Shown: piece after piece, positions 37,305 through 60,421 of the stretch
How the letters are laid out: every line of letters begins with the position of its first letter
How positions within the stretch are numbered: the first letter of the stretch is position 1
Origin: Candidatus Uhrbacteria bacterium
GTDB taxonomy: Bacteria; Patescibacteriota; Patescibacteriia; UBA9934; GWF2-40-263
Direction: 5' to 3'
Assembly (NCBI GenBank): GCA_016219925.1
Contig: JACRJU010000013.1
Coordinates: 980 to 64,979 of the forward strand
DNA: 64,000 nt
Notes under the pieces: generated by a model
Seen by the model: only the letters and a program-made list of their open reading frames with translations
The model's database searches: none
What the model was told of the DNA's origin: nothing
Position numbers and translations under genes: made by a program

Positions 37305-37337
37305 GAAAAACAACCTGATTTCATCAGGTTGTTTTTT
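37305..37337 (-). terminator. bidirectional rho-independent terminator, serving the minus-strand gene 37435-37866
   Basis: AAAAA-CAACCTGAT-TTC-ATCAGGTTG-TTTTTTT: a perfect 9-bp stem flanked by an A-run and a T-run. Confidence 0.6.
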
Positions 37338-37434
37338 TACCCACGAATGCAAGGACGGAGTTCGAACTCCAGAGAGTTCGGAGGGTCGTTCCCCAAACTT
37401 TTAGGACGGAGGGGGAACCGCAAGAACAAAAATT

Positions 37435-37866: not shown

Positions 37867-37890
37867 AAATTTACGTTCGCTCCTTATTTT

Positions 37891-39723: not shown

Positions 39724-39867
39724 GGTTTCCTCCTGAATGGGTTTTTGTGACTCCTTACCAACGTGATAAAGAGCGTCCGAAACCGTTTCGGAACCCGAAA
39801 AAATAACACAAAAAAACGATTTTGTCAATCGTTTATACAAAAAACCCGCGATTTTCGCGGGTTTTTT

Positions 39868-43450: not shown

Positions 43451-43562
43451 CAGGCGTCTCACTCTACGCATTTTTTTTCTTTCTGTCAATCAAACTGCCG
43501 CGCTTGTTCACACCCGCGCGTGATCAATTTTTGAAAATCCTGTATTATAACTATAACGTTCT

Positions 43563-46502: not shown

Positions 46503-47582
46503 ATGAAAAAAATCGATTGGCGGCTGATGATCTATCCGATTCTGATTTCTCTCGTCCTTGGATTGGGCGCGGGCATTTTGGGCACCGCATGGACATCGTC
46601 ATATCTTTCAGATTACGCCGTTCAATTAAATGAACTGACCGCGCCTCTTCGCCTTTCTGCGCAGAAGCCTCGTAACTTTCCGTCTTCCTATAAAGAGGCT
46701 GTTGATGATTTTGTATCGCAGACTTTGCCAAGCGTGGTTCAGGTGTATCGTGACGCGTCGGGTGCGCTGGGATATCGGCAGGATGAGGCGGATCGTGTGG
46801 GCATGGTGCTCACCACGGACGGATGGGTGGGAATTGAAAGTGGACGAACAGCTCCGGCGTCGCTGATGGAGTCGCGTATTCACGTCAATAATCAATGGCT
46901 TTCCGTGCAGGCACAAAAGTTCGATCCGGTGACAGGGATCATTTTTGTGAAAGTAGAGGCAGATCATTTGCCGGTGGTGTCTTTGGGGAAGGGGCGGGAA
47001 GCCCATCGAGGCGAGCAGGTTTTCGTTGTTGAAGATGCCGCGGGATTTGTCGTGGCTTCCGTCAAAGGGGAAGAGTGGGCGCAAGACGGATCGGTCAGCT
47101 CTGATGAACCCAACCGTTTGCTCACGCTCGATCGCGATGTTCAACCTGGAAGTTTGGTTTTTAATTTGAGCGGAGAGGTGATTGGACTGGTGCGCACGGA
47201 TCACGCGGTCTTGCCCATCGAAGCCATGACACCATCGTTCAAATCTTTGCTTGAGCATCAAACCATTTCACGCCCGACACTCGGGGTGATGGCCGTGGAT
47301 CTTTCCCATGGGCTTGATATATCTGCGACGCTGACTTCCGGGCACACGACCGGCGCCCTGCTATACGGATCGGGATCGCTTGTGCGTTCCGGTGCGGCGC
47401 GTCAAGCCGGTCTCAAACCTTCCGACATCATCCTTTCCGTGAACGATGAATCCGTGGACGCTTCACACACCCTTGATGAACTCATCGAACAATATCGTCC
47501 GGGCGATCAAGTGCGTCTGCAAGTTGAACGCGCCAAAGTGGGGCAGACCATCACGGTCACATTGGGCGAGCGCGCGCCTTGA
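46503..47582 (+). CDS. HtrA-like protein with C-terminal PDZ, apparently catalytically degenerate
   Basis: N-terminal TM. Trypsin-like fold remnants. A PGSLVFNLSGEVIGL segment occupies the position of GNSGGPLVNLAGEVIG. No His in the (VLTTDGWVG) region that aligns to the TNAHVV motif. PDZ: GALLYGSGSLVRSGAARQAGLKPSDIILSVND. Confidence 0.6.
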   Translation: MKKIDWRLMIYPILISLVLGLGAGILGTAWTSSYLSDYAVQLNELTAPLRLSAQKPRNFPSSYKEAVDDFVSQTLPSVVQVYRDASGALGYRQDEADRVGMVLTTDGWVGIESGRTAPASLMESRIHVNNQWLSVQAQKFDPVTGIIFVKVEADHLPVVSLGKGREAHRGEQVFVVEDAAGFVVASVKGEEWAQDGSVSSDEPNRLLTLDRDVQPGSLVFNLSGEVIGLVRTDHAVLPIEAMTPSFKSLLEHQTISRPTLGVMAVDLSHGLDISATLTSGHTTGALLYGSGSLVRSGAARQAGLKPSDIILSVNDESVDASHTLDELIEQYRPGDQVRLQVERAKVGQTITVTLGERAP

Positions 47583-47713
47583 GGTATAATAAAGACGTAG
47601 TGAACACTTTTACCCCTCGAGCCGTGTTTACCCCCCGAGCCTGTCGAGGGGGTATGGACTGCACCGCATTGCGAGCACAGCCTTCGATAGGCTCAGGCGA
47701 TAAGAGATCCCAT

Positions 47714-48346
47714 ATGTCCGCGAATCATCTCAAAACACTATCCGCAGGTTGGCAAACGATTTTGATGTTTGGTTTGTTGGGACTCGTGTTTGCGCTTATC
47801 GTCTCTTTTGTTCAGCCGCTTCAGTATGGTTCAACGGCGCGCCTCTTGATTTTGCAAGACGTGGGTTCTTCGGTGGATGCGTATACGGCTTCGCGCTCCG
47901 AGGAGCGTATCGCGGAAAATCTTTCCACGATTATTTACACGAGTACTTTTTTGGATCAGGTGCTCTCGGCCGGGTTTGATATTCGCGCGAATACGTTTCC
48001 TACGGATTCGGCCAATCGCCGTCGGGCTTGGCATAAGGCTGTGACCGCAACGGTTTCGCGCGGTTCGGGATTGCTTACGATTTCCGCCTATGACCAGGAT
48101 GTGAGGCAGGCCGAGCAGGTCGTTCGGGCTGTGGCTTTTGTTTTGACCGGACGGGTGGGGGAGTTTACTTCTGGGGGAAATGTGCAAGTTCGATTGATTG
48201 ATGCTCCGCTCAATTCGCGCTGGCCGGTCCGGCCAAATATTTTTGCAAATACCCTGACCGGATTGATTTTGGGAGGATTTGTTGGGATAGCCGTTGTCTT
48301 GGTTCAAACGGAAAAGATTCGTCGGAGGCATCAACTGCACGGATAA
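47714..48346 (+). CDS. Wzz/YveK-like polysaccharide chain-length-determinant family protein (short form)
   Basis: ATG 47714 (MSANHLKTLSAGWQTILMFGLLGLVFALIVSFVQPLQYGSTARLLI). C-terminal TM. The track ORF from 47579 overlaps the upstream gene. Confidence 0.6.
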   Translation: MSANHLKTLSAGWQTILMFGLLGLVFALIVSFVQPLQYGSTARLLILQDVGSSVDAYTASRSEERIAENLSTIIYTSTFLDQVLSAGFDIRANTFPTDSANRRRAWHKAVTATVSRGSGLLTISAYDQDVRQAEQVVRAVAFVLTGRVGEFTSGGNVQVRLIDAPLNSRWPVRPNIFANTLTGLILGGFVGIAVVLVQTEKIRRRHQLHG

Positions 48347-48416: not shown

Positions 48417-48445
48417 TTGACATTTTTGTCTGATTATGCTACATT
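48417..48445 (+). promoter_or_regulatory. sigma70-like promoter (TTGACA, 17 nt, TACATT) driving the R1 leader
   Basis: TTGACA at 48417-48422 and TACATT at 48440-48445. AT-rich, immediately upstream of the structured leader. Confidence 0.45.
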
Positions 48446-48594
48446 GCCACGTTCAATGCTCCTTATGTGACCCGCGTTTTGAAGCGGTTTGATGTCCAGC
48501 CGGAATGCCTCCTCCTCATTCTGCGCCGGATATCAGACCACTTCAGACCGTATGGTCTGGTGTGTCCCTTAAAACATCACCAAGAACATATTTG

Positions 48595-48850
48595 GACAGA
48601 TTGGTTTCTCTCTGCACCTACGGCTTTACTTCTCTTAAGGAGATCCTTCGTCGGCCTCTGGCCTCCTCAGGATGACAAATAAAATGTTGTGTCATCCTGA
48701 AGGAGCTTGAATCGACTGAAGGATCTTACAGAATGTAAAACCGCGAGTGCAGAGAGACAACCATCCCTCCGGGGTGGCTCTGTGGCATACAGCTGAGACG
48801 GGATTTCCCCCGCTTCGGTATCGTGTGTCAGATATCCCCCGGAGGGGGAG
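48595..48850 (+). promoter_or_regulatory. structured 5' leader / repeat element R1 with an SD-sequestering stem
   Basis: Long-range inverted repeat TCTCTCTGCAC (48607-48617) with GTGCAGAGAGA (48747-48757). Nested hairpins AGATCCTTC/GAAGGATCT and CTCAGGATGACA/TGTCATCCTGAAG. CCCTCCGGGG (48765-48774) pairs with CCCCGGAGGG (48837-48846), which contains the SD GGAGGGGG 6 nt before ATG 48854. The 105-nt core 48746-48850 is repeated at 52086-52190 with one mismatch. Confidence 0.65.
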
Positions 48851-48853
48851 ACA

Positions 48854-50341
48854 ATGGAGGAAGCCATGAAGACGTTGTGCCAGTTCGTTTTCGCCGTGAG
48901 TCTGCTCGTCGGCGCCACCGCCGCGTTCGCGGCCCCCCCCAAGCCCACGGCCGACTGCGGCCTGGACAAGGACGGCGACGGTTGGTGCGTGCCGGATCCG
49001 AGCCGCACCATGCCCGACCCGGCCGACCCCAGCAAGAGCAAGCCGTTTCATCTCGGCAAGCTCGACTGCAACGACGCCGACCCGGCCGTTCACCCCGGCG
49101 CCAAGGAAATCGTCGGCAACGGGATCGACGAGGACTGTGACGGTGAAGACGCCGAAGCCCCGGCCTACGCGAAGAACTTCGGGTGCGACCCGAAGAACGC
49201 GAAGTGTTTGGCGGTCTTGGCCAAGGAGATCAAGGCGTGCGACGGCAAGACCGGCTGTGCCGTGAACTACACGGCCGGCAAGTTCGTCACCGGCTTCGGC
49301 TTCTACTTCATCGACACCGACTGCGACGGCGTGCGCGAGCTTGTCAATCAGGCCGGGAAGGACAAGCACGACGCCGAGATCGCGGCCGGGAAGCACTGCG
49401 TGCGACCCGCCGGGACGACGCATCGCCCGCACCACAAGGGGAAGGCCAAGCCGAAGTACGCCGTCGCTCCTCTCCCCGTCGATCCCACCCGGGTCGACGC
49501 GCTCGAGAAGGGAGCCGGCGAGCTCCGAGATGACGTCGACGGTCTCGATGACCGGCTCGACGACGTCGAAGAGCTCGCGGCCGACGGGGCCAAGCGCCTC
49601 GATGACCTCAACGGAGCCCTCAAGGCCGAAGCCAAGGCCCGTGAGGCCGCGGACAAGGCAGAGGCCGAGGCCCGCAAGGCCGCCGACAGCGCTCTGGGCG
49701 ACCAGATCGCGATCGTCAAGGGCCAGGCCGCGACGGCTCACCGGGTCGCCGTGGCCGCGGGCACCCGCGCCGAAGACGCCGCCTCCGCCGCCGCCGTCGC
49801 CAACAGCGCCGGCGTCAACGCGGGGTTCAACGTCGGCGTGGCTCTCAAGGGCCAGGCCGACATCCACCTGAAAAGTGGAGTGGCGCGGGGAGGCTTCGCT
49901 CCCATGCTCCTCGTCGGCGGTCACGTCGGCGCGGAGCTCCCGTCCGGGATCTACCGCCTCCTCGGCGCCGTCGGCCTCCCCTTCGAGGAAGGTCCAAGCG
50001 GCAACACCGAGCGCGGGATGTTCTGGACGGTCGGTGGCGAGACGCTCTTCAAGCTCGCCCCCGGCTCCGCGCACGCGCTCGGGCTCATCGTCCGGTACGT
50101 CGACCACGAAAGTGGTGGTGACGTCCTGGGCGTCAACGCTCGGTCGCGCGGCGGCGGAGGCGGCGTCGCGTACGAGTACGCGTCCGGCTCGGGATGGTTG
50201 CGCACCCCAGTGCACGTCAGCCTCGAAGGGGGCGGCGAGCAGTTGGGCTCCCAGGGCAGTCAGTTTCGTGCCCTGGGCAACGCCGCCTTCGCCATGCTGA
50301 CCCTCACGGTCGGTGGCGGAACCGGTGCGCTCACCCGCTAG
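48854..50341 (+). CDS. GC-rich secreted protein. Signal peptide, MopE-like Cys/Asp metal-binding-type repeat, coiled-coil, Gly-rich C-terminal domain
   Basis: Signal peptide MEEAMKTLCQFVFAVSLLVGATAAFAAP. CNDADPAVHPGAKEIVGNGIDEDCDG motif. About 68 % GC. The long antisense ORF 48692-50215 is treated as a GC artefact. Confidence 0.7.
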   Translation: MEEAMKTLCQFVFAVSLLVGATAAFAAPPKPTADCGLDKDGDGWCVPDPSRTMPDPADPSKSKPFHLGKLDCNDADPAVHPGAKEIVGNGIDEDCDGEDAEAPAYAKNFGCDPKNAKCLAVLAKEIKACDGKTGCAVNYTAGKFVTGFGFYFIDTDCDGVRELVNQAGKDKHDAEIAAGKHCVRPAGTTHRPHHKGKAKPKYAVAPLPVDPTRVDALEKGAGELRDDVDGLDDRLDDVEELAADGAKRLDDLNGALKAEAKAREAADKAEAEARKAADSALGDQIAIVKGQAATAHRVAVAAGTRAEDAASAAAVANSAGVNAGFNVGVALKGQADIHLKSGVARGGFAPMLLVGGHVGAELPSGIYRLLGAVGLPFEEGPSGNTERGMFWTVGGETLFKLAPGSAHALGLIVRYVDHESGGDVLGVNARSRGGGGGVAYEYASGSGWLRTPVHVSLEGGGEQLGSQGSQFRALGNAAFAMLTLTVGGGTGALTR

Positions 50342-50869
50342 GCCTCTGCGCGGCGCGGCTCGCCTCCTCCCGAGTGCGCGCCGTCATCACGCCGGTTGTC
50401 CCCCGACCGGCACTGGGTGACCCCGCCTCCCGCGCAGTTCGACTTCGGTCGGCTGTGCGGGGGCGGGGAAACCTGGACCTCTCATCAGCTTTTGCTGATC
50501 CTGGCTCCACACACCTACTCGTGTGGAGACCTCGTACGAGAAGTTGAGTCATTTATTGCCCGAGCTTGTCGAGGGCTGTAGATGGATCATTCGACTTCTG
50601 ATATGAGGAGAACGAACATCTTTGCCATACTGTCCTGTCATCCTGAGCGAAGCGAAGGATCTCGCGTTTCTAGAGATTCTTCAGTCACTGCTGATGGAGT
50701 TATATCGACCGAAGGATCCCAAGGTGTAAAGCTGGGGAAAGCAGGATGATTGATCGCCACCCGCTGGTGTTCAGCCATCCTGTTTTCCCCGGACCCTGAC
50801 CCATGGTGGGTTCGGGGGCGGATTGGACAGAGAGAAGTCCACGGGGAGGCCCGTGGCAGGAGGAGATCC

Positions 50870-51757
50870 ATGAACCGTACCACCACCACGTCGTTCGTCT
50901 TCGCCGTACTCGCGGCCTTCGCCCTCACCGCCTGCGGAGGCGTCCAGGCCGATTGGGACCAGCCCGACGGCACCTCGGCCGATGCGGGCGCCAAGCCCGA
51001 CAGCGAGTCCAGCGGCGGCGAGGTCTCGACCACCGCGACGTGCAACCCGGCGATCCAGGACTGCGACGGCGACGGACGCATCGGCCAGGCCGACTGCGGC
51101 CCGTACGACCCGAGCGTCTACGCCGGTGCCCCCGAGCTGTGCGACGGCAAGGACAACAACTGCGACGGTCACACCGACGAGGGATGCCCTGCCAAGCCGG
51201 CCGCAGCGGCCGACTCCGACGGGGACGGCTACCCGGACGGGCCGCAGGACTGCGCTCCGTCCAACCCATCGGTGCACCCGGGCGCGACCGAGATCTGCGA
51301 CGGCGTCGACAACAACTGCGACGGCGTCACCGACGAGGGATGCTCGGCGGCCACAATCCCGCCCGGCAACGAGGCGAAGCTCTCGTGTACGTTCACCTTC
51401 ACGACGGACCGGCAACGGACCGTCAACGTGCAGGCGTACGACACCAAGGCCGACCTCGGCAAGTGGTGGGACTCGAGCCAGACCGGCTCGGGCAAGTCCA
51501 TCACGGTCGAGCTCCCGCAGGTGCCCAAGGACATCTGCGGGTTCCGCCTCAACACGGCGGAAGGCAACCCGCCGACCGACTGGTTCTGCGAGGGCAACGG
51601 CTCCACAGCCAACCTCGACCCGTCGACCAGCGTGAGCTGTGTCTTCGACGGGAAGTCCGCGACGAAGTCCGGGCTCAAGACTTGGTCGGCCCCCGGCGGA
51701 ACCAACGCCGGCTGCAGCGCCGTCTGGGTCGTGACCCCCAGCGCCAACTGCTGGTAG
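50870..51757 (+). CDS. GC-rich lipoprotein with two MopE-like repeats and a C-terminal beta-rich domain (paralog)
   Basis: AGGAGA RBS. Lipobox MNRTTTTSFVFAVLAAFALTAC. DCGPYDPSVYAGAPELCDGKDNNCDGHTDEGC and DCAPSNPSVHPGATEICDGVDNNCDGVTDEGC. C-terminal LGKWW...WSAPGG motif shared with 52207-53205. Confidence 0.7.
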   Translation: MNRTTTTSFVFAVLAAFALTACGGVQADWDQPDGTSADAGAKPDSESSGGEVSTTATCNPAIQDCDGDGRIGQADCGPYDPSVYAGAPELCDGKDNNCDGHTDEGCPAKPAAAADSDGDGYPDGPQDCAPSNPSVHPGATEICDGVDNNCDGVTDEGCSAATIPPGNEAKLSCTFTFTTDRQRTVNVQAYDTKADLGKWWDSSQTGSGKSITVELPQVPKDICGFRLNTAEGNPPTDWFCEGNGSTANLDPSTSVSCVFDGKSATKSGLKTWSAPGGTNAGCSAVWVVTPSANCW

Positions 51758-51877
51758 GTCACAACGATCCCTTCTGCCCACTGCGTCTTCCAACCGGTGG
51801 GCGCTTTTTTTTGTCAGACATTTGTGACTTTTAGTCAAAAATTGCCGTTTTTATTACAAAATACGCGTTTGGATGGC

Positions 51878-51906
51878 TTGACAAATCGGCTATTTTATGA
51901 TATATT
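51878..51906 (+). promoter_or_regulatory. strong sigma70-like promoter (TTGACA, 17 nt, TATATT) driving the R2 leader
   Basis: TTGACA at 51878-51883, a 17-nt spacer, and TATATT at 51901-51906. An AT-rich block inside the GC-rich island. Confidence 0.55.
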
Positions 51907-51934
51907 AATCTGTTCCCAAAATGAGGGAATGGAT

Positions 51935-52195
51935 CCGGTTTCTCTCTGCACTAAGTTCTTAAACTCGTTACTTTGTCATGTTGTGTCTTTGCGAGGAGGC
52001 CGGTCGAATGACCGGACGACGAAGCAAACTCGAGATTGCTTCGGTCGCTTGAACCTCCCTCGCAATGACAACAGTTTGAGACTTGAGTGCAGAGAGACAA
52101 CCATCCCTCCGGGGTGGCTCTGTGGCATACAGCTGAGACGGGATTTCCCCCGCTTCGGTACCGTGTGTCAGATATCCCCCGGAGGGGGAGTAGTT
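51935..52195 (+). promoter_or_regulatory. structured 5' leader / repeat element R2, a copy of R1
   Basis: TCTCTCTGCAC (51941-51951) pairs with GTGCAGAGAGA (52093-52103). The core 52086-52190 is 104/105 identical to 48746-48850. Here an additional AGGAGG SD lies 8 nt upstream of ATG 52207. Confidence 0.65.
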
Positions 52196-52206
52196 AGGAG
52201 GAAAAG

Positions 52207-53205
52207 ATGAAGAAGCTCCTGTCCGCTTTCGCCGCGAGCCTTCTGCTCGTCGGCGCAACCGTCGTGCTGAACGCCTGTGAGGGCGTTTCGGCCACCTACA
52301 CCACGCCCGAGCCGACCATCGAGTCGGTCGACGCGGGACCGTCGTCCGTCGACGCGGCCAGCGCCGACAAGGGTTCGTCCGTCGACGCCGCTCCGGCGCC
52401 CGACGCGGTCACGTCGACGCACCCGTGCGTCGACAACGACCACGACGGGTACTGCGTCGTCAACGCCAAGGGCGAGCCAGTCGACTGCAACGACTCGCCG
52501 CTCGACAAGGACGGCGACGGGATTGTGGACGGATTCCCGATCCACCCCGGCGCCGCCGAGATCTGCAACATGATCGACGACAACTGCGACGGCCACACCG
52601 ACGAGGGCCTCGAGAAGGTCCTCAACTACGTGGACGGCGACAACGACGGCTACGGCGACATCAACGACCCGGGTGCGGAGACCTGCCTCGCGCAGGGATT
52701 CGTCACCGACAACGGGGACTGCGACGACAACGCCGCCAACATTCACCCCGGCGCCCCGGACAAGCCCAACGACGGCATCGACTCCGACTGCGACGACGAG
52801 TCGCAGAAGGAGAATGCTCCGCCCACGGAGACGGCCGTCCATGGCGTCCTGACCGTGCAGGTCCCCAACAAGGCGGCACTGGTGCTCTCGTACCAGTTCG
52901 CCAAGTCGGAAGATCTGCTCGGCAAGTGGTGGGAGCCGGACGTCGCCAAGGCAGAGAACGGCGATGAGGTAGGCACGTCGTTCGTGATGTCCAAGGACAT
53001 CGCGTTCGTGCGCCTCAACGTCACGATCGGCACCGGCGACGCGGCCACCTGGCTGTGCTCCGGCTCGGGCAACGACGCGGCGCTCCTCAAGGACGCCAAG
53101 GTGAAGCTCGAGTTCGGCGGCGGCGCGCTCGTCGGCGAACCCTACCTGTGGTCCGCCCCAGAAGGCGGCTGCAGCGTCGTCTTCCCGATCGCCTACCTCG
53201 AGTAG
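52207..53205 (+). CDS. GC-rich lipoprotein with MopE-like repeats and the shared C-terminal domain (paralog)
   Basis: Lipobox MKKLLSAFAASLLLVGATVVLNAC. CNDSPLDKDGDGIVDGFPIHPGAAEICNMIDDNCDGHTDEG. C-terminus LLGKWWEPD...LWSAPEGGCSVVF. Confidence 0.72.
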   Translation: MKKLLSAFAASLLLVGATVVLNACEGVSATYTTPEPTIESVDAGPSSVDAASADKGSSVDAAPAPDAVTSTHPCVDNDHDGYCVVNAKGEPVDCNDSPLDKDGDGIVDGFPIHPGAAEICNMIDDNCDGHTDEGLEKVLNYVDGDNDGYGDINDPGAETCLAQGFVTDNGDCDDNAANIHPGAPDKPNDGIDSDCDDESQKENAPPTETAVHGVLTVQVPNKAALVLSYQFAKSEDLLGKWWEPDVAKAENGDEVGTSFVMSKDIAFVRLNVTIGTGDAATWLCSGSGNDAALLKDAKVKLEFGGGALVGEPYLWSAPEGGCSVVFPIAYLE

Positions 53206-53298
53206 GCTTCCTCGGGCGCTCTACACGCCCCCTGACCCCGGCGCCCACCTGCCCCATCGCTCTAGATGGAACGCAGGTGGGTGTCCGGGGTCTTGTTA

Positions 53299-53327
53299 TT
53301 GACAAAATCTTCGTTTCCTGATAAAAA
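53299..53327 (+). promoter_or_regulatory. sigma70-like promoter candidate (TTGACA, 17 nt, TAAAAA)
   Basis: TTGACA at 53299-53304 and TAAAAA at 53322-53327. Followed by a GCCCTCG ... CGAGGGC inverted repeat in the leader. Confidence 0.4.
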
Positions 53328-53490
53328 AAGCCCTCGCTCATTATCAACAGACCTCTATGCTTTTGGTCTTGATTCGGCTTGTTTTGCCTAAAATCGAGGG
53401 CAGTTGCGTGGAGATCTAGGCGGCCAAGCAGGGAAAGTCCCTGCCTGTGTTGCCAAGAAGAGTCCCCAAGCAGGGGGCAAGGAGTTCGTG

Positions 53491-55176
53491 ATGTTTTCGC
53501 CTCGTCCTCTCATCATGGCGGCGGTCCTCGCGACCGCGTGCCAGTCCAACCCGTTCGGCTCGCTCGAAGCGAGCTACGACGCATCGGCGGACACGTCGTC
53601 CCAGGCCGAGGCATCGCCTGCCACCATCGACAAGGACAATGACGGCGTTCCTGCCTCGCAGGACTGCGACGACAACGACCCCAAGGTCGGCAAGGCGCAG
53701 ACCTGGTACTTCGACAACGATGGCGACGGCTGGGGCAACACCTCGGCCACGTTCGTCTCGTGCACGAAGCCGGCGAGCTACGTCGACGTCTCCCACGCAG
53801 GCGACTGCGCGGATGCCGACAAGTCGTCCTATCCCGGCGCGCCCGAGCTGTGCGACGGCAAGGACAACGACTGCGATGGCAAGATCGACAACGCGACTGG
53901 CAACGTCTGGTACTTCGATGCCGACGGCGATCAGCGCGGCGATCCAGGCGCGATCGTCACGGGCGGCTGCAAGGCGCCCAACGCCAAGCTCGTCGGGAAC
54001 GCCGACGACTGCGACGACCTCAACCCGAAGGTCTACAAGAACGCGCCCGAACTGTGCGACGGCGTCGACAACAACTGCAACGGGCAGATCGACGAAGGGG
54101 TGAAGATTCCCATCTGGGTCGATGCCGACGGCGACGGTTTCGGCGACAAGTCCAAGCCGACCTTCGCCTGCAAGGTGGAACCCGGGTTCGCCGGGAACGC
54201 CGACGACTGCGATGACAAGAACATCAAGGTCAATCCCAAGGCCGCCGAAGTCTGCAACAACGTCGACGACAACTGCAACGGGCAGACCGACGAAGGTACG
54301 ACGACGACCTTCTACGCGGACGAGGATGGCGACAGCTTCGGCAATGCGGCCAAGCCTGTCCAGGCCTGTTCGCTCGGGCCCGGGCTCGTGACGGCGCCCT
54401 TCGCGACCGACTGCAGCGATACGAACGCCAAGGTGAACCCCAAGGCGGACGAGCTGTGCGACGGCATCGACAACAATTGCGACGGCAAGACCGACGAGCC
54501 GAGCGCCAAGGACGCCCAGGTCTACTACCTCGACGAAGACGGTGACGGCTTCGGTCTGGAGAGCACGGCTGTCAAGAGCTGTGCCAAGCCTTCGTCCAAG
54601 CACGTCCTGATTACGGCGGACTGCAACGACGATCCGAAGGTCGGCAAGGCCGCCCATCCCGGCGCAACCGAGATCTGCGACGGCCTCGACAACGACTGCG
54701 ACGGCAAGACCGACGAGGGCACAGCCCAGGAGCTATGCGACGACGGCCTGCCGTACACCACCGACGCTTGCTCGGGCAAGGCGGGGTGCGTCAACCTGCC
54801 GCTCCCGGTCACGCTCACCTGCAAGGTGCCGTCCGATGCCGAGTTCAAGTTCAACCCGGCGGAGGACAGCTGCTCGGCGGCTGTCTTCTACTCCAAGGTC
54901 GCGGGTGGCGAGGTGAGCTACAGCGCGCTCTCGATCAAGGAGGGCACGCTCACGCCTTCGCCCGCCGATCTGTGCGCCATGTTCAAGGACGGCTGGAACC
55001 TCCACGTGGAGGATCTGGTTTCGACCATGAGTGGTGTCTCCGGGTGGGTCGGTGGCGAGTACGTCACCGTCAAGGTCGACGGCAAGCCGGTGAAGGGAAC
55101 GCCGGGGAGCGTCACCATCCTCCCCCCCGGCCTCGACTTCATCTACACGGCCAAGGACTTCGGGTTCTGCCCGTAG
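53491..55176 (+). CDS. GC-rich lipoprotein with about 7 tandem MopE-like repeats plus a C-terminal domain
   Basis: AAGGAG RBS. Lipobox MFSPRPLIMAAVLATAC. Repeats of the form DCDDxDPKVxxxAxExCDGxDNxCxGxxDEG, alternating with WYFDxDGDGxG segments. Confidence 0.72.
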   Translation: MFSPRPLIMAAVLATACQSNPFGSLEASYDASADTSSQAEASPATIDKDNDGVPASQDCDDNDPKVGKAQTWYFDNDGDGWGNTSATFVSCTKPASYVDVSHAGDCADADKSSYPGAPELCDGKDNDCDGKIDNATGNVWYFDADGDQRGDPGAIVTGGCKAPNAKLVGNADDCDDLNPKVYKNAPELCDGVDNNCNGQIDEGVKIPIWVDADGDGFGDKSKPTFACKVEPGFAGNADDCDDKNIKVNPKAAEVCNNVDDNCNGQTDEGTTTTFYADEDGDSFGNAAKPVQACSLGPGLVTAPFATDCSDTNAKVNPKADELCDGIDNNCDGKTDEPSAKDAQVYYLDEDGDGFGLESTAVKSCAKPSSKHVLITADCNDDPKVGKAAHPGATEICDGLDNDCDGKTDEGTAQELCDDGLPYTTDACSGKAGCVNLPLPVTLTCKVPSDAEFKFNPAEDSCSAAVFYSKVAGGEVSYSALSIKEGTLTPSPADLCAMFKDGWNLHVEDLVSTMSGVSGWVGGEYVTVKVDGKPVKGTPGSVTILPPGLDFIYTAKDFGFCP

Positions 55177-55403
55177 CCTCGGCCTCACTAGACTCGGTGC
55201 GGACACAGCGGTATTATCCGCTTCGTCGTCCGCACCGAGTCGCTCTTTTTCCTCTTAGTCTAAACAAAGCGATCAGAATCGACACGATACGTTGTTATTA
55301 AAGAACGCATCATGTCGGGGTTGATCGGTTTCAACAACGACCGGTTCACGGGCGGTCACCCGTGTCACTGCCGTCCATGAGTATGGGTGGCTGGGAGGTG
55401 GCC

Positions 55404-57536
55404 ATGTCGGCCCGCATCACGCATCTGTTCGCGAGCCTCGTGCTCGCGGTTTCTCTCGTGTCCGTCGGCTGCGTCGTGGACGACGGAGGCCATCGCGTCG
55501 CCGACGGCGGCGCGATCAGCAGTTCGCCCGACGCGGCGAACTACGCCACCAAGGCCTTCCCGCTCAAGGACCTGACCACGGGCCTCGCGGCCGCGTGTAC
55601 GCCGGTCACCGGCGACGACAACTGCAACGCCGAAGGGCCGGGCGGCCAGAAGCTTTTCTGTGCCGCAGATCACCTGTGCTACTTCGCCAAGGCCGACGGC
55701 GGGTGCACGTACCCGCAGCTCGGCGGAGGAACGAAGACCTGCGTCTACACCGCCTGCGCCAAGGACGCCGACTGCGCTCTCGCGAATCCCGACCCGGATC
55801 ACCTGACCGGTACCTGCATCTTCACGGTGCAGTCCAGCGTCAGCGACGAGGGAGGAGAATGCGGGTTCTTCTACAAGGACTGTTCGGCCGCGGCAGGGAC
55901 GCCCTGCCAGGTCGACGGCTTCTTGACCTGCGCCAACAACGTCTGCACCTGTTCGGTGTCGTCCGACCTCTCCAAGGCGGTCACCGAGGTCTGCGACAAC
56001 GTCGACAACAACTGCAACGGGCAGACCGACGAGACGTTCAGCCTTGGTGCGGCCTGCGACGGCGCGGACGCCGACCAGTGCAAGCATGGCACCCTTCAGT
56101 GCAGTCAAGACGGCCTCTCGACCGTCTGCACAAACGAGACCGTCCAGAACATCGCCGAGACCTGCAACGGCGTTGACGACGACTGCGACAACGCGATCGA
56201 CGAGGACTTCCCGACGCTCGGGCAGGCCTGCGACGGCGCGGACGCCGACCAGTGCAAGAACGGCGTGCTCGTATGCAGCAATGACGGCAAGGGCGTCGCC
56301 TGCGAGGAAGTCGGCAAGAACGTCGAGGAAGCCTGCAACGGCGTCGACGACGACTGCGACGGGCAGACCGACGAGGGCTGCGACGATGACAAGGACGGCT
56401 ACTGCGACGCCTCGATGGCGTTCGCCTCCGGCGCGGCCTGCCAGAAGGGCGACTGCAATGACGCCGACAAGACCATCCACCCGGGCGCCACCGAGATGTG
56501 CAACGGCGTGGATGACGACTGCAACGCGCAGACCGACGAGATCTTCCCGCTTGGGCAGACCTGCTCGGACGGCCTGGGCGTCTGCAAGGTCAGCGGCACC
56601 TACAACGCCTGCGCGCAGGACGGCCTCTCGGCCAAGTGTTCGGTCACGGCCGACCTTTCCAAGGCGGCCACCGAGATCTGTGACGGCGTCGACAACAACT
56701 GCGACGGCAAGACCGACGAGGGCTGCGACGACGACAACGATGGCTGGTGTGATGCCTCGATGGCGTTCGCCTCCGGCGCGGCCTGCCAGAAGGGCGACTG
56801 CAACGACGCCAGCGTCGGCATCAACGGAGCGGCCACCGAGATCTGCGACGGCGTCGACAACAACTGCGACGGCAAGACCGACGAGGGTTGCGACGACGAC
56901 GCAGACGGCTACTGCGACGCCACGATGCTCGTCGGCACGGGTGCGGCCTGCAAAGGAAGCGCCGGCAAGGGCACGGACTGCGACGACACCAAGGCCGACG
57001 TTCATCCCGACCAGGAGGAGGTCTGCTCGACCTCCTACGACGACAACTGCGACGGCCTCATCGACCTCAAGGCCGATGGCAAGACGCCCGTGTGCAACGC
57101 GTGCTTCTCGGCCGTGACGATCGCCTGCGGCGACGTCGTCGAAATCGACATGGCGAAGAACGCGAACGCGTTCAACGCCATCAACTCCTACGCGTGCTGG
57201 TCTCAGCTCGGAACGCCCAAGACCCTCAAGAGCGTCTTCGACGCCCCAGAGGTCGTGGTCGTTCCGGACGCCCCCGCCGGCACCAAGTTCTCGCTGAAGA
57301 TCGTGTCGAGCGACAAGCCCGTGCTCGCGACGATGCTTCACGGCTCGTGCCAGGCGGACGCGGGAACCAAGGCCGTGACGCCCTACAACGCGGGCGCGGG
57401 CCTCACCGGCACCTGCGCCGACTACACCATCGGCGGTGCGGTCAGCGGTGGCGTCGTGGGCCAGGACTTCGCGGCTCTGGACGCCCTGTCCGCGACCAAG
57501 GTGAAGGTTCGCTTCACCTGCGTCACCACGCCCTAG
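55404..57536 (+). CDS. GC-rich secreted Cys-rich protein with at least 12 MopE-like/EGF-like repeats and a C-terminal ~180-aa domain
   Basis: GGGAGG SD 5 nt upstream of ATG 55404 (MSARITHLFASLVLAVSLVSVGC). Repeats EVCDNVDNNCNGQTDE..., GDCNDADKTIHPGATEMCNGVDDDCNAQTDE. The antisense ORF 55365-57341 is rejected. Confidence 0.7.
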   Translation: MSARITHLFASLVLAVSLVSVGCVVDDGGHRVADGGAISSSPDAANYATKAFPLKDLTTGLAAACTPVTGDDNCNAEGPGGQKLFCAADHLCYFAKADGGCTYPQLGGGTKTCVYTACAKDADCALANPDPDHLTGTCIFTVQSSVSDEGGECGFFYKDCSAAAGTPCQVDGFLTCANNVCTCSVSSDLSKAVTEVCDNVDNNCNGQTDETFSLGAACDGADADQCKHGTLQCSQDGLSTVCTNETVQNIAETCNGVDDDCDNAIDEDFPTLGQACDGADADQCKNGVLVCSNDGKGVACEEVGKNVEEACNGVDDDCDGQTDEGCDDDKDGYCDASMAFASGAACQKGDCNDADKTIHPGATEMCNGVDDDCNAQTDEIFPLGQTCSDGLGVCKVSGTYNACAQDGLSAKCSVTADLSKAATEICDGVDNNCDGKTDEGCDDDNDGWCDASMAFASGAACQKGDCNDASVGINGAATEICDGVDNNCDGKTDEGCDDDADGYCDATMLVGTGAACKGSAGKGTDCDDTKADVHPDQEEVCSTSYDDNCDGLIDLKADGKTPVCNACFSAVTIACGDVVEIDMAKNANAFNAINSYACWSQLGTPKTLKSVFDAPEVVVVPDAPAGTKFSLKIVSSDKPVLATMLHGSCQADAGTKAVTPYNAGAGLTGTCADYTIGGAVSGGVVGQDFAALDALSATKVKVRFTCVTTP

Positions 57537-57554
57537 CGGCGCAACACTTCCCGG

Positions 57555-57588
57555 TCGGTCAGCTCTGCTGATCGGCCGATTTTTTTTG
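57555..57588 (+). terminator. rho-independent terminator at the right edge of the GC-rich island
   Basis: TCGGTCAGC-TCT-GCTGATCGG stem (with two G-U pairs) followed by T8. Confidence 0.45.
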
Positions 57589-57636
57589 CGTGTTCTTATT
57601 CAGCCTCCTTAGCCCTTTTCATGATACAATTCTTTC

Positions 57637-59187
57637 ATGATCAACTTGCAGGCCGTTTATTTTCAATCAGAAGTCACGGCGCGACGATCTCTCTTCGCCC
57701 TTTTGGGTTTTTTGATTGTGCTTCTTATTATCGAGTCGGTCGTGTCGCCTTGGGTTGCTCTTGGGGTTCTCATTGCGGCCATCATGGTCGTTGGAGCGTT
57801 CATTTCACCCACCCTCGTTTTAGGATTTCTTGCAATCTATTTGCCCTTCGAGCCGCTCGTGCTGAAGTTTGTTCCAGACGCTCTGTATGTTTTTTCCCGA
57901 TTTTTTTCCGAAGGAGCAATTTATTTATTGGTTGTGGTCGTGGCGTGGCGATGGATTTCCGGACGCCTCACGTCTGAGCGCACGTCTTTGAATCTCCCCT
58001 TTGGTCTGTTCATTCTGGCTCTCTTGTCCGCCGCGGCCGTTCACGCCGTTCCGCTTTCGATCACCGCGCTTGGCTTGCGGCAGATTCTGCGTTTTCCGAT
58101 CATCTTTTTTTTGGTTGTGGCTCTGCGCCCGTCCAAGGCTTTCATTCAAAAACTCACGTTCGCGCTGTTTATCATTTTGCTTATTCAATCCGCGTTAGGC
58201 ATCGCCCAGTATTTTATCGGACAAAGGCTCGACTCGCTTCTTATTGCATCGGACACACGTTCCTTTGGTGAACTCACCCTCACAAGCGGCGTCGAGCAGT
58301 TTTGGGATCCGGGTTCGCGGGTGTTTGCCACGCTTGGGCGCTATGATCGTTTGGGAAATTTTCTTTATCTCGTTTTATTGATCGCTTCCGGCTTTCTTTT
58401 TACTTTTGAAAAAAAATCTCCTCACATGCATCGTCTCTTGTGGTGGGTATTTGCTCTGGGGATCCCCACACTTGTGCTGACGTATTCGCGGTCGTCGTGG
58501 TTTGCTTTTTTGATTGGGTTTTTATTTATCGGACTTATCATCAAGCGTGATAAAAAAGTTTTTGCGGGTCTGCTCGCGTCGGTGCTTATTATTCTTGGTT
58601 ATCTTGCCGCTTCAGGTATCACGGTGGATTTACTCGCAGAAGCGCCAGGACAAACTGTGACAGAACGATTTTTTGAGGCGTTTAGTTATACCCGATGGCG
58701 GGGAGAATATTTCGGTCTCGGTCGGGTCTTTTGGTATGTACAAACCCCAGCCACGGTTATTGTGGCTTCGCCGATCTTGGGGTGGGGAGCCGGGCAATTT
58801 GGCGGTGGCGCCGTCGCCGCGCTTCACAACACGCGTGTGTACGATGAACTCGATCTCCCGTTTGGCATTTTTGGAACGGAAGGACATATCGATAACAACT
58901 GGTTTTCGCTATGGGGTGAAGCCGGCACGCTCGGGCTCGTTTTCTTTATTTGGATGGGGATGGCCCTTTGGCGCGAGGCTTTGCGAACCTATTACACTTC
59001 TTCCGATCCTTATGTTAAAGGATTAGCTATTGGCCTGTGTGCAATCTTGCTTGCGGTATCGTTTAACGGGTTTACTTCGACGATTTTTGAAATTCGCACG
59101 GTCGGGTTTTATGTGTGGATGTATGGAGGGATGGTGTGGGTGTTGAGGGAAAATGGGAAAAGGAGTTATGGGGAACAACGGCGATGA
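57637..59187 (+). CDS. O-antigen ligase / Wzy-like polymerase family integral membrane protein
   Basis: About 11 TM helices. A large periplasmic loop carries the (TYSRSSWFAFLIGFLFIG) motif region typical of the O-antigen ligase/Wzy_C family. Confidence 0.7.
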   Translation: MINLQAVYFQSEVTARRSLFALLGFLIVLLIIESVVSPWVALGVLIAAIMVVGAFISPTLVLGFLAIYLPFEPLVLKFVPDALYVFSRFFSEGAIYLLVVVVAWRWISGRLTSERTSLNLPFGLFILALLSAAAVHAVPLSITALGLRQILRFPIIFFLVVALRPSKAFIQKLTFALFIILLIQSALGIAQYFIGQRLDSLLIASDTRSFGELTLTSGVEQFWDPGSRVFATLGRYDRLGNFLYLVLLIASGFLFTFEKKSPHMHRLLWWVFALGIPTLVLTYSRSSWFAFLIGFLFIGLIIKRDKKVFAGLLASVLIILGYLAASGITVDLLAEAPGQTVTERFFEAFSYTRWRGEYFGLGRVFWYVQTPATVIVASPILGWGAGQFGGGAVAALHNTRVYDELDLPFGIFGTEGHIDNNWFSLWGEAGTLGLVFFIWMGMALWREALRTYYTSSDPYVKGLAIGLCAILLAVSFNGFTSTIFEIRTVGFYVWMYGGMVWVLRENGKRSYGEQRR

Positions 59188-59194
59188 GTCCGTT

Positions 59195-60421
59195 ATGCGT
59201 ATCATTCTCGCGAACAAGTTTTACTATCCCCGTGGAGGGGCAGAGACCTATCTGCTTTCGCTTTCGTATTGGCTTAGCGCGCATGGCCACGAGGTGATTC
59301 CGTTTGCAATGCAACATCCGGAAAATTTGCAGACGCCTTTTGCAAAATACTTCGTCAGCCAAATCAACACGGACGCGCATCAGCCCCTTTCGTGGCTGGA
59401 GCGTTTGCACACGTTTGGTCGCATGATGTATTCGCTTGAGGCCCGTCGCAACATGGCCACACTCATTTTTCACGAGCATCCAGACCTCTGTCACATCCAC
59501 AACATTTATACGCAAATTTCTCCATCCATTTTGGATACCTTGTCCGATCAGCGCGTGCCTGTGGTGATGACCGTTCATGATCATCATCTCATTTCGCCCC
59601 AGTACAATATCTGGGCGGCTGGATGTGGTCCGGACAGGCGCAAGGTCGGTCTGGTGCGTGGCACGCTATCTCGATTTCATCAACACTCGTATGCCGCATC
59701 ATTCGCACAGGTGGCGGCGTATAAACTCCATCGCGCTCTCAAGCTCTATGCACGCGGAGTGAAATTATTTATCACGCCCAGCGCCTATCTCAAACGTCAG
59801 CTTGTGGCGGGGGGATTTCCGTCGGAGCATATTCACGTGAATCCGTATGGGATCGATACCCGTACGATTGCTCCGCACTACGAGCACGACGGATCGTTTT
59901 TGTATGTGGGGCGTTTGAGCGAAGAAAAGGGAGTCGAGCTTATTGTCACCATTGCCAAATTGTTGCCTGACCTTCGATTCAAGATTGTTGGCCGCGGGCC
60001 GCACATGGAATTTTTGCACCGGTTGGCGATCGGTGTGGACAATGTGGAGTTTTTAGGATTCCGATCCGGCGAAGAGCTCAATATGTTATATCGCAACGCT
60101 TGCGCGCTATTGGTTCCCTCGCGCGTACACGAAGTGTTTCCGCTCACGATTCTTGAAGCCATGGCTTATGGCAAGCCGGTCATCGCGAGCCATGTTGGCG
60201 GGATTCCCGAGATCGTGCAGGATCGTTCAAACGGGTTTCTCGTCTCGCCGACGGACGTGTATGGGTGGACAGAGGCGATTTTACGCTTGGCTTATGATCA
60301 AACTCTGCAACAAAATTTTTCCCGATCCGCCCGTGCTTCTGTTGAAGAACAGTTTCGTTTGGATGATCATTACCGCCGACTCCTCACCATCTATCAAGAA
60401 GTGATGCCCAGGCAGGGATAG
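59195..60421 (+). CDS. family-4 glycosyltransferase (GT4)
   Basis: ATG 59195 (MRIILANKFYYPRGGAETYL). C-terminal EX7E-type motif region (FPLTILEAMAYGKPVIASHVGGIPEIV). Confidence 0.85.
   Translation: MRIILANKFYYPRGGAETYLLSLSYWLSAHGHEVIPFAMQHPENLQTPFAKYFVSQINTDAHQPLSWLERLHTFGRMMYSLEARRNMATLIFHEHPDLCHIHNIYTQISPSILDTLSDQRVPVVMTVHDHHLISPQYNIWAAGCGPDRRKVGLVRGTLSRFHQHSYAASFAQVAAYKLHRALKLYARGVKLFITPSAYLKRQLVAGGFPSEHIHVNPYGIDTRTIAPHYEHDGSFLYVGRLSEEKGVELIVTIAKLLPDLRFKIVGRGPHMEFLHRLAIGVDNVEFLGFRSGEELNMLYRNACALLVPSRVHEVFPLTILEAMAYGKPVIASHVGGIPEIVQDRSNGFLVSPTDVYGWTEAILRLAYDQTLQQNFSRSARASVEEQFRLDDHYRRLLTIYQEVMPRQG

Follow-up and report, generated by a model that had tools for sequence, protein, structure and literature searches.

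Gene Content and Composition of the Locus

The present analysis concerns a cassette of five consecutive genes, designated M1 to M5, in a 64,000-nt stretch of contig JACRJU010000013.1 (the whole stretch is referred to below as the window, and positions are counted from its first letter). The host is Candidatus Uhrbacteria, a group of very small and probably symbiotic bacteria of the Candidate Phyla Radiation (CPR, or Patescibacteria); NCBI holds a protein of this taxon, encoded on a 282 kb contig, with 100% identity to the M2 product. The cassette is situated in a surface-polysaccharide locus, between a gene for a wzz-like chain-length determinant and a wzy-like/GT4 gene pair. The genes, with their GC content at third codon positions (GC3), are listed below.

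47579–48346, plus strand: wzz-like chain-length determinant, the upstream flank; Wzz and GNVR domains, each just under the cut-off; GC3 0.53
48866–50341, plus strand: M1; signal for Sec export (AFA↓A), one MopE repeat in a Cys-rich head, helix of ~94 residues, predicted C-terminal eight-stranded beta-barrel of outer-membrane-protein (OMP) type; GC3 0.88
50870–51757, plus strand: M2; lipoprotein signal LTAC, two MopE repeats, predicted C-terminal beta-sandwich; GC3 0.93
52207–53205, plus strand: M3; lipoprotein signal LNAC, MopE repeats, a paralogue of M2 with the same C-terminal beta-sandwich; GC3 0.92
53491–55176, plus strand: M4; lipobox-like ATAC, five or more MopE repeats, which alternate with DxDGDGxG units, C-terminal domain specific to M4; GC3 0.89
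55404–57536, plus strand: M5; lipobox-like SVGC, N-terminal domain rich in Cys, six MopE repeats, C-terminal domain specific to M5; Cys content 8.6%; GC3 0.91
57637–59187, plus strand: wzy-like O-antigen ligase or polymerase, the downstream flank; Wzy_C 40.7 bits; GC3 0.52
59153–60421, plus strand: gene with GT4 domains, following the wzy-like gene; GC3 0.58

The GC content in 1 kb windows is 0.63–0.69 across 49–57 kb and about 0.47–0.56 nearly everywhere else in the window. At a resolution of 200 nt, it steps up at 48.8 kb and down at 57.6 kb, and the block so delimited is filled by the five plus-strand open reading frames (ORFs), at 48.87–57.54 kb. The GC3 values of the other 30-odd genes of the window range from 0.43 to 0.62, with the exception of three outliers outside the block. 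Codon choice in the cassette differs from that in the rest of the window accordingly: Lys is encoded by AAG in 98% of cases (32% elsewhere), Tyr by TAC in 98% (29%), Phe by TTC in 96% (33%) and Asp by GAC in 89% (33%). The excess is located at third codon positions, which rules out amino-acid composition as the source of the high GC. The four internal spacers of the window fall to a GC content of 0.37–0.53, and cassette spacers in all the loci compared below remain at host level (0.37–0.54). The GC rise, therefore, tracks the ORFs, and the block is not uniformly GC-rich.

The only other long ORFs found in the 48.3–57.7 kb region overlap M1–M5 in other frames or antisense, as expected at such a GC content. 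Those on the minus strand at 48692–50215 (507 aa) and 55365–57341 (658 aa), opposite M1 and M5, are the usual by-product of very high GC3, with no evidence of being genes.

A preliminary description of this DNA had read the region as a high-GC island of about 9 kb inserted from a Myxococcota-like donor. Its observations are confirmed: the block itself, five secreted MopE-repeat proteins, four lipobox-type signals (M2–M5), the AT-rich, host-like promoters, the polysaccharide setting and a strong Shine-Dalgarno sequence before each gene. The latter are placed 5–9 nt before the starts of M1–M5 and read GGAGG, AGGAGG, AGGAGG, AAGGAG and GGGAGG, respectively. Four of the proposed gene starts were retained, and that of M1 was moved: an ATG is available at 48854, as first proposed, but orthologues begin at the second ATG, 48866, which is the more likely start. 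The interpretation offered with these observations is partly supported, as discussed in the following sections.

Conservation of the Cassette in Uhrbacteria

The cassette is an old, vertically inherited and clade-specific set of five genes in the surface-polysaccharide locus. The common gene order comprises an AI-2E transporter, three small genes, a PDZ protease, the wzz-like gene, the five MopE genes, the wzy-like gene and the GT4 gene. This order is complete in the assemblies GCA_016188475.1 (L002) and GCA_041294325.1 (L046) and in a JGI contig of 502 kb, which were obtained from NCBI and JGI. Shorter matching contigs came from JGI and Logan. L047 and L048 cover the upstream junction, L050 carries M1 beside the wzz-like gene and L003 contains cassette genes only. 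The proteins encoded by the flanks are 40–84% identical to those of the window and the positional MopE orthologues 33–65%, and the relationships in the two groups are roughly congruent. The wzz-like protein is 66–80% identical to its same-place orthologues in L002, L046, L047 and L048, and the wzy-like/GT4 pair occupies the same position in L002, L046 and the 502 kb contig. The occupation of one site in assemblies with flanks this divergent makes the cassette older than a deep split in the clade.

A chimera of a GC-rich contig with a CPR contig, produced during assembly or binning, would explain the sharp composition steps at 48.85 and 57.55 kb, and the 106 nt segment repeated inside the block could be considered in its favor. 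However, both junctions recur in the NCBI and JGI assemblies L002, L046 and the 502 kb contig, and the upstream junction is also present in JGI and Logan contigs of other samples. The junctions have been recovered by different assemblers from different samples and thus are not assembly artefacts. In addition, host-level composition returns four times within the block, exactly at the spacers. The probability of a chimera is practically negligible.

The distribution of homologues also points away from a foreign source. An exhaustive search of 1.84 billion representative proteins with the C-terminal 325 residues of M1 yielded only 30 relatives, nearly all of 480–550 aa, and each match was located in the C-terminal part. 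Full-length relatives of M2 are the clade's own Uhrbacteria-type orthologues. The M2 matches in other phyla (Zixibacteria, Bacteroidota, Myxococcota, Cyanobacteria and archaea) span the repeats only, 24–43% of the query. Since the relatives of M1 and the full-length relatives of M2 fall within the clade, no outside donor is visible. PF11617 is, as these matches show, a short Asp/Cys motif of many phyla rather than a Myxococcota-specific one. Look-ups of the exact sequences of M2 and of the PDZ protease gave no record. A scan of a genome collection with the PDZ protease returned only an irrelevant Streptomyces protease. In a metagenome scan with the M1 alignment, all patterns were drawn from the MopE repeat, and the outcome was 40 generic MopE genes and no orthologues.

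These results bear directly on the proposed recent transfer of an island from a GC-rich, Myxococcota-like donor to the site between wzz and wzy, in which the GC content would be an un-ameliorated donor signature. Such a transfer would account for codon usage that is far from that of the host and like that of a GC-rich bacterium; PF11617 is common in GC-rich genomes (27 of the 33 genes of the control set described below lie in contigs with a GC content of at least 0.6), and Myxococcota proteins are found among the repeat-only matches. Nevertheless, the same site is occupied in three other divergent Uhrbacteria assemblies and, in part, in three more contigs, with orthologues that are merely 33–65% identical and related roughly as the flanks are. 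The non-repeat domain of M1 is confined to its own family, and the matches of M2 beyond the clade concern repeats alone. The composition of the spacers, promoters and leaders is that of the host, and all three are conserved in the clade. No direct repeats and no tRNA were found at the borders of the block. The five proteins match PF11617 only, so the earlier statement that integrase and transposase genes are lacking holds for them, the overlapping long ORFs of the block not having been searched. Among the marks of a genomic island, atypical composition is present; the cassette is not absent from relatives, mobility genes, border repeats or a tRNA were not found within the scope just given, and the closest homologues are not foreign. 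A recent insertion is considered extremely unlikely. The repeat module may have reached the clade long ago from a lineage rich in GC.

Persistence of the GC3 Offset

The GC3 of the five genes and of their flanks was compared in the loci for which DNA was available:

Window: cassette 0.88–0.93, flanks 0.52–0.58
L002: cassette 0.64–0.77, flanks 0.27–0.39
L046: cassette 0.63–0.71, flanks 0.29–0.45
L047: cassette 0.64–0.75, flanks 0.46–0.55
L048: cassette 0.66–0.80, flanks 0.40–0.56

An offset of 0.2–0.4 is thus present in all of them, amounting to ~0.3–0.4 in the three loci with well-sampled flanks and 0.2–0.3 in L047 and L048. The direction of the bias is the same in each locus. NNC is preferred over NNT in two-fold pyrimidine-ending codons (0.69–0.90 against 0.27–0.38 in the flanks), NNG is preferred over NNA in Lys, Gln and Glu codons (0.68–0.89 against 0.20–0.47), and C at fourfold sites reaches 1.6–2.3 times the flank level in each lineage.

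At fourfold-degenerate sites of conserved amino acids, the third-base identity between loci is 0.32–0.43, compared with 0.26–0.36 expected from composition. The residual excess is 0.02–0.07 in the M genes and 0.01–0.09 in flank or host genes. Such a small excess, which does not exceed that of the flanks, means that synonymous sites have been almost wholly rewritten since divergence. As the offset is nevertheless present in each lineage, the composition is not simply an un-ameliorated foreign signature. A persistent, gene-specific GC3 offset of this kind was not found in the literature searched.

The offset might still be the decaying remnant of an ancient transfer of the cassette, or of its repeat module, from a GC-rich donor, with no force acting at present. 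The main home of the MopE motif appears to be GC-rich genomes, and the cassette GC3 is lower in most relatives (0.63–0.80) than in the window (0.88–0.93), as partial amelioration predicts. In some pairs, the M genes also retain slightly more residual fourfold identity (window against L046: 0.05 compared with 0.01). By our estimate, however, a neutral relic would retain only ~10–30% of its offset, that is, 0.2 or less even from a GC3 near 1.0, whereas ~0.3–0.4 is seen (0.2–0.3 in the short contigs). The window lineage stands at a GC3 of 0.90, near the ceiling, and the relatives stand at 0.63–0.80 whether the host is at 0.3 or 0.5, which resembles a set-point rather than a decay. An offset of this kind is also found in three genomes for a second clade-specific secreted gene (41882–42940). 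An ancient relic is regarded as unlikely, although it deserves more weight than the other alternatives discussed here.

GC-biased gene conversion at a recombination hot spot, between paralogous repeats or between strains, is a further possible source of high GC. Surface loci are often recombination-prone. Concerted evolution is visible in the cassette, where a 106 nt segment of the M1 and M3 leaders is 99% identical, and the genes are full of repeats with 60–86% identity. Conversion tracts, however, ignore ORF borders, and the GC rise ends at start and stop codons, leaving the spacers, wzz and wzy host-like. The non-repeat parts of the genes are equally GC3-rich, and M1, with a single repeat, reaches 0.88. 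The coding strand of the cassette favors C over G at fourfold sites (0.58 and 0.31 in the window), while conversion should be strand-symmetric. Effects of GC-biased conversion reported in bacteria amount to a few percent, not to 30–40 points. This mechanism is judged quite improbable.

A requirement of the MopE repeat itself for GC-rich coding was ruled out with a control set of 33 of the generic MopE genes returned by the metagenome scan, in which the GC content of the gene equals that of its own contig (median difference −0.003, n = 33). There are two exceptions, both from lower-GC contigs. Positions 6101–10000 of contig L006 encode a protein of at least 1300 aa with eight MopE repeats, Golvesin_C and PKD domains, at a GC content of 0.60–0.65 in a contig of 0.46. 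The gene adjoins polysaccharide genes (a flippase and a DegT aminotransferase), so the same offset and type of neighborhood occur in an unrelated metagenome contig. The MopE gene of L007 exceeds its contig by 0.10.

Promoters, Terminators and Spacer Structure

The spacers contain the following signals:

48417–48445, plus strand: M1 promoter; TTGACA, 17 nt spacer, TACATT, TG before the −10 element; 10 of 12 matches; block kept in L002
50421–50468, plus strand: GC-rich hairpin after M1, read from the sequence, CCCCGCCTCCCGCGCAG...CTGTGCGGGGGCGGGG, no U tract; position kept in L003
50505–50528, plus strand: hairpin in the M1–M2 spacer, CTCCACAC...GTGTGGAG; z of the spacer −7.3
50599–50612, plus strand: invariant block TGATATGAGGAGAA, 3′ of this hairpin
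51777–51812, plus strand: intrinsic terminator after M2, read from the sequence, GCCCAC...GTGGGC and then a T run; kept in L002 and L003
51878–51906, plus strand: M3 promoter; TTGACA, 17 nt spacer, TATATT, TG; 11 of 12 matches, the best in the region
53299–53327, plus strand: probable M4 promoter, read from the sequence; TTGACA, 17 nt spacer, TAAAAA
55192–55250, plus strand: terminator after M4, read from the sequence, ACTCGGTGCGGAC...GTCCGCACCGAGT followed by a T run
57552–57588, plus strand: strong intrinsic terminator closing the cassette; 12-pair stem with 8 GC pairs, then eight T

The promoter consensus scan found five sites, with 0.9 expected. The M3 promoter is conserved in L002 and L003 together with the first transcribed bases. 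The M4 promoter fails the requirement of the scan for T at position 6 and can be called probable. A hairpin or terminator follows M1, M2, M4 and M5.

The spacer before each gene is 200–500 nt long (up to ~830 nt in relatives) and is packed with stable hairpins. When folding was compared with that of dinucleotide shuffles, all 27 cassette spacers from six loci gave z values between −3.7 and −18.2. Control values were +0.8 to −3.4 for five intergenic regions, the lowest of which holds a tRNA, and +1.2 to −2.7 for coding sequences. Blocks of 18–24 nt are identical in spacers of genomes whose proteins are ~50% identical. The hairpin and TGATATGAGGAGAA blocks of the M1–M2 spacer, for instance, are shared without change by the window, L002 and L003, whose proteins are only 54–65% identical.

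Palindromic elements of the form (C)TGTCATCCTGA...GCGAAGCGAAGGATC...TCAGGATGACA(G) recur in several cassette spacers and in relatives (window 48660–48700 and 50630–50660; L003 1900–1960 and 3420–3480; spacers of L002). A 63 nt unit is common to four L002 spacers with 89% identity. The palindromic elements (e.g., GTCATCCTGAGCGAAGCGAAGGATC) supply part of the hairpin content of the spacers and of the extreme folding energies, and they may be small mobile hairpin elements.

Structured Leaders of M1 and M3

The leaders of M1 and M3 share a segment, designated element A, and a long-range helix, P1. MFE denotes the minimum free energy of folding.

48452–48865, plus strand: M1 leader, ~410 nt; MFE −196.7 kcal/mol against −127.7 kcal/mol in shuffles, z −10.6 (whole spacer, z −13.4)
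48603–48618, plus strand: 5′ arm of P1 in the M1 leader, GGTTTCTCTCTGCACC, pairing with 48746–48761
48745–48850, plus strand: element A, copy 1; includes GTGCAGAGAGACAACC as the 3′ arm of P1, a helix formed by CCCUCCGGGG / CCCCGGAGGG, and an inner hairpin; the Shine-Dalgarno sequence follows shortly after its end
51913–52206, plus strand: M3 leader; MFE −142.4 kcal/mol against −97.1 kcal/mol in shuffles, z −9.8; hairpin at the predicted 5′ end
51937–51952 with 52086–52101, plus strand: P1 in the M3 leader, a long-range pairing
52085–52190, plus strand: element A, copy 2; 106 nt, 99% identical to copy 1

The covariance model R1, built on the 5′ half of element A, gave matches upstream of M1 and M3 and nowhere else, the loci being the window, L002, L003 and L047. 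The candidacy of element A as a universal cassette leader was thus rejected: it is restricted to M1 and M3 of the nearest sub-clade and was not found in L046 or L048. Copies within the window and within L002 are more alike than orthologous copies, and this within-genome likeness of the M1 and M3 leader sequences indicates concerted evolution or gene conversion.

A partner arm for P1 is present in every leader with element A. The GCAGAGA core of the element pairs with a segment 76–152 nt upstream, around a variable hairpin insert, and the flanking bases covary: GGTTTCTCTCTGCAC / GTGCAGAGAGACAACC in the window, AATCGATCTCTGCGAC / GTCGCAGAGATCGAAT in the M1 leader of L002 and GGATGTTTTCTGCTT / AAGCAGAGAACATCC in L047. 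In an alignment of only five sequences, with the partner arm located by reverse-complement search, compensatory double changes occur in 8 of 16 pairs, and 88.8% of the cells are paired, compared with 36–59% when the partner is slid. The covariation score is 0.537 against 0.178 in shuffles and was reached by none of 500 shuffles. The compensatory changes give moderate support to a conserved leader structure. The GCAGAGA core is also able to pair locally with the downstream CTCTGTGGC, so that alternative structures are possible.

No Rfam family was found in the spacers and leaders at gathering scores; the matches with an E-value of 5 or less were below the cut-offs, belonged to unrelated eukaryotic or viral families and were taken as chance. 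Structured, covarying leaders of this kind were not found in the literature searched either and represent an uncatalogued structured RNA.

In Escherichia coli ompA and in S-layer genes, transcription begins at a strong promoter and stops at a strong terminator, and the 5′ untranslated region is long, has a hairpin at or near its 5′ end and includes a strong Shine-Dalgarno sequence. The cassette leaders have features of the same type, and a stabilizing role may be proposed for them by analogy. They differ in their length of up to ~830 nt in relatives, in the covarying long-range helix around a variable insert and in having no Rfam family.

Features of the Encoded Proteins

The five products consist of 295–710 aa, and all of them exceed the PF11617 gathering cut-off of 27 bits, with scores of 42, 76.9, 53.2, 173.2 and 112.8 bits for M1–M5. 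The numbers of PF11617 repeats or stretches are 1, 2, 2, 5 and 6, respectively. No NCBIfam model matches any of the five proteins.

The signal of M1 is of the signal-peptidase-I type, and M1 is not a lipoprotein. All of the 18 family members compared keep the lipobox Cys of M2 and M3. Orthologues of M4 and M5 likewise keep this Cys, though positions −3 and −2 are non-canonical; for M4, this applies to three of the four orthologues, since the L002 gene call starts inside the protein and its signal peptide is not visible there. The public call of the M2 orthologue in L002 (10001–10627, 208 aa) also begins too late: an in-frame upstream ATG in 9730–10000 gives MKRFLVLAALAAALCLTAAGCGG..., the expected lipoprotein signal. 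Lgt and LspA are not among the window genes searched.

M3 can be aligned with the M2 family by way of the WSAPxGG...GCS motif. A domain of the type LGKWW...WSAPxGG had been assigned to three genes; by profile comparison, it is present in M2 and M3 only. The C-termini of M4 and M5 showed no relation to this domain in the same comparison, and no C-terminal domain shared between M4 and M5 was found. The M5 orthologues are 57–60% identical.

The C-terminal part of M1, at about residues 316–491, is predicted to fold as a closed, eight-stranded antiparallel barrel with long strands. No Pfam match to the barrel was obtained, even at an E-value of 10, and no barrel was matched in the PDB profile search. 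Outside coiled coils, the only PDB match of the M1 profile, and its best sequence match, is MopE* (2vov_A, E 2e-6), covering residues 14–56 only. The stalk gave weak profile matches to those of the trimeric autotransporters EibD, UspA1 and NadA and to other coiled coils.

Among known eight-stranded barrels (NspA, the N-domain of OmpA, OmpW, OmpX/Ail and Thermus TtoA), none has sequence similarity to M1. The M1 barrel further differs from them in its C-terminal position behind a Cys-rich head and a helix of ~94 residues, in the lack of a terminal aromatic residue and in belonging to a lineage described as monoderm (PMC8871954). The order of head, coiled-coil stalk and C-terminal barrel is that of OmpM/SlpA-type tethers and of trimeric autotransporter adhesins. 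With eight strands per chain, however, the M1 barrel is neither a trimeric anchor with four strands per chain nor a very large barrel of the SlpA/OmpM kind, and its head is a Cys/Asp-rich module instead of an SLH domain or a beta-roll. The resemblance is one of architecture.

A role in the acquisition of copper or another metal, as for MopE/CorA of methanotrophs, is suggested by Cu-binding_MopE, the Pfam name of the family that all five proteins match, and by MopE* being the best PDB match of the M1 profile. The similarity to MopE/CorA (PF11617; PDB 2VOV) consists of an extracellular location and a short motif of ~30 residues, C.DG.DNDCDG..DE; the rest of the fold and the His/His/kynurenine site are unmatched. 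The Cu(I) site of MopE* is composed of His132, His203 and kynurenine-130 (PMC3423442), and the match to M1 lies outside it. The lack of specificity of the PF11617 profile has been acknowledged (PMC6189053). The genomic context has no link to methane or copper, and the neighbors of the cassette are polysaccharide genes, with no transporter or copper enzyme beside it. The sequences do not support a copper role for the cassette proteins, and we consider metal acquisition very unlikely.

The gene content belongs with the known Cys-rich surface proteins of CPR. Cys-rich extracellular proteins of Peribacteria, with weak similarity to the Myxococcus-type Cys repeat, have been proposed to serve rigidity or attachment (PMC4736985). 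The cassette proteins are likewise exported and Cys-rich, in a CPR genome that invests heavily in surface polymers. The Peribacteria proteins, however, have ~1,650 aa and are scattered, in contrast to a fixed five-gene cassette of proteins of 295–710 aa in a conserved position. The cassette is also distinguished by lipoboxes in four of the five proteins, by the gene-specific GC3 offset and by structured leaders; the last two features are not reported in PMC4736985.

Other Features of the Window

The remainder of the window is ordinary chromosome, with genes for TopA, DprA, Pth, Der, an LCP-family enzyme, HtrA-like proteases, LepB (signal peptidase I), HisRS, FtsA, FtsZ, pyruvate kinase, L20/L35/IF3, SmpB, tmRNA and two tRNAs. 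It also encodes T4SS-pilin-type proteins, which are typical of CPR. The following features were noted:

6884–8470, minus strand: LCP (LytR-CpsA-Psr) family protein
15694–25911: protein of 3405 aa with an N-terminal T4SS-pilin domain, Big_5, VWA and sub-threshold DUF4215 (the Myxococcus Cys-rich repeat)
35865–35942: tRNA-Asp
36018–36629: apparently truncated NTP_transferase ORF, GC3 0.31
38824–39840, minus strand: Pro/Ala-rich membrane protein with a PPAP-type low-complexity region; GC 0.69, GC3 0.73
41882–42940, minus strand: secreted protein of 352 aa, identical to HZA85_02675; GC3 0.83 in a background of 0.54
43060–43451, minus strand: tmRNA gene (Rfam, 117.7 bits), directly upstream of the 352 aa gene on the same strand

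The 352 aa protein has no Pfam or NCBIfam match, and its family is named from Uhrbacteria only (19 hits). The gene is situated between SmpB and tmRNA/AI-2E in the window and likewise in L049 and L050. There it has a GC3 of 0.59 and 0.57, respectively, and its neighbors are mostly at 0.35–0.50, with single genes up to 0.60. It is absent from this site in L046 and the 502 kb contig. Synteny in other Uhrbacteria rules out a window-specific insertion. The gene is a second, milder case of a gene-specific GC3 offset.

For the Pro/Ala-rich protein, a similar Pro-rich protein stands beside L20 in L050 with a GC3 of 0.46, so the excess of the window gene may be due in large part to amino-acid composition. 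The tRNA-Asp gene is followed by ~1.8 kb of low-GC DNA up to 37900 (0.34–0.41, compared with ~0.51), which holds the truncated NTP_transferase ORF. In appearance, the 35865–37900 region comes closer than the cassette to a genuine recent insertion at a tRNA.

The giant protein at 15.7 kb had been cited as carrying Myxococcus-type Cys repeats, hinting at repeated acquisition of Cys-rich modules. The DUF4215 repeat is present just under the cut-off; the protein does not match PF11617, and its GC3 is host-like (0.51), from which it follows that the GC anomaly is not tied to Cys-rich repeats as such. The idea of repeated acquisition falls with the island interpretation, as the cassette is old and syntenic and its offset persistent.

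LCP enzymes attach glycopolymers to peptidoglycan in Gram-positive-type walls. The LCP protein might bear on the anchoring of the polysaccharide and of the cassette proteins.

Proposed Function and Maintenance of the Cassette

Inheritance alone seems unable to explain the abnormal, GC-rich codon usage of the cassette. We consider it probable that the cassette encodes separately expressed envelope or attachment proteins, vertically inherited, and that their GC3 is held up by selection linked to expression. M1, M3 and probably M4 would be expressed from their own near-consensus sigma-70 promoters, each gene with a hairpin-rich leader and a strong ribosome-binding site and most of them followed by a hairpin or terminator. 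The five exported proteins would contain Asp/Cys-rich repeats that are probably stabilized by Ca2+ and disulfide bonds. As predicted from the lipoboxes, M2–M5 would be held at the membrane by an N-terminal lipid, and M1 would present a Cys-rich head on a long helical stalk ending in a predicted OmpA/NspA-like barrel of eight strands. Together with the polysaccharide produced by the neighboring genes, these proteins most likely build or decorate the cell surface and mediate attachment.

The GC-rich codon usage would be maintained in each lineage, and the force responsible would act solely on the ORFs. A GC3 set-point that is exact to the ORF and independent of lineage points to selection that acts either on the coding RNA or on how it is decoded. 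Expression-linked selection is, thus, the most likely force, either for mRNA stability, to which both GC-rich coding RNA and hairpin-rich leaders could contribute, or for decoding. The hairpin-rich leaders and the terminators suggest long-lived mRNAs as a common theme.

Several observations weigh against this explanation. The only other genes of the window that are probably well expressed, L20, L35, IF3 and SmpB, have a host-like GC3 of 0.55, and IF3 and SmpB of L046 have 0.34–0.36; a codon bias of highly expressed genes, common to translation genes, is not seen in these four. Canonical translational selection is recognized by a C bias in two-fold and a U bias in four-fold codons (PMC7374057), and U is depleted in the four-fold boxes of the cassette. 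The coding segments are no more structured than shuffles of the same composition (z +0.3 to −2.7), so any effect on stability would have to come from GC content alone. The estimate for the decay of a relic and the saturation of fourfold sites is crude, with 160–580 sites per comparison. On the protein side, both structures were predicted from alignments that are shallow (18 and 26 sequences), and the terminal aromatic residue that M1 lacks is typical of substrates of the barrel-assembly machinery (BAM). CPR bacteria described so far are monoderm (PMC8871954), which makes the barrel prediction unexpected: a transmembrane beta-barrel would have no obvious home in a cell thought to be single-membraned.

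A bolder reading joins the two unusual features, linking an M1 barrel on a stalk in a single-membrane CPR lineage to a GC-rich codon set-point held by an undescribed, gene-specific selection. In this reading, M1 would carry a Ca/Cys-rich head on a stalk of ~14 nm. Either Uhrbacteria may possess an outer lipid layer, or M1 may act as a grappling hook, the barrel of which inserts into the outer membrane of a Gram-negative host while the lipoproteins M2–M5 hold the symbiont side. The set-point may be independent of genome drift and maintained by a mechanism undescribed for bacterial chromosomal genes. No report of an outer-membrane-type barrel borne on a stalk in a CPR lineage was found in the literature searched. 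Taken as a whole, this joint reading is unlikely.

Under the explanation that we favor, expression-linked maintenance of an old set of surface proteins, the cassette is a cautionary case: programs that call islands from composition would label it wrongly in all genomes of the clade. An offset of 20–40 points in GC3 that has survived near-saturation of synonymous sites in a few genes for exported proteins needs a gene-specific force, and the clade, in which host GC3 ranges from 0.3 to 0.55, offers replicated natural experiments on it. For the biology of Uhrbacteria, the cassette is a concrete candidate for an envelope or attachment apparatus, and the predicted barrel on a stalk provides a testable hypothesis on how these cells may be built or how they may hold a partner.

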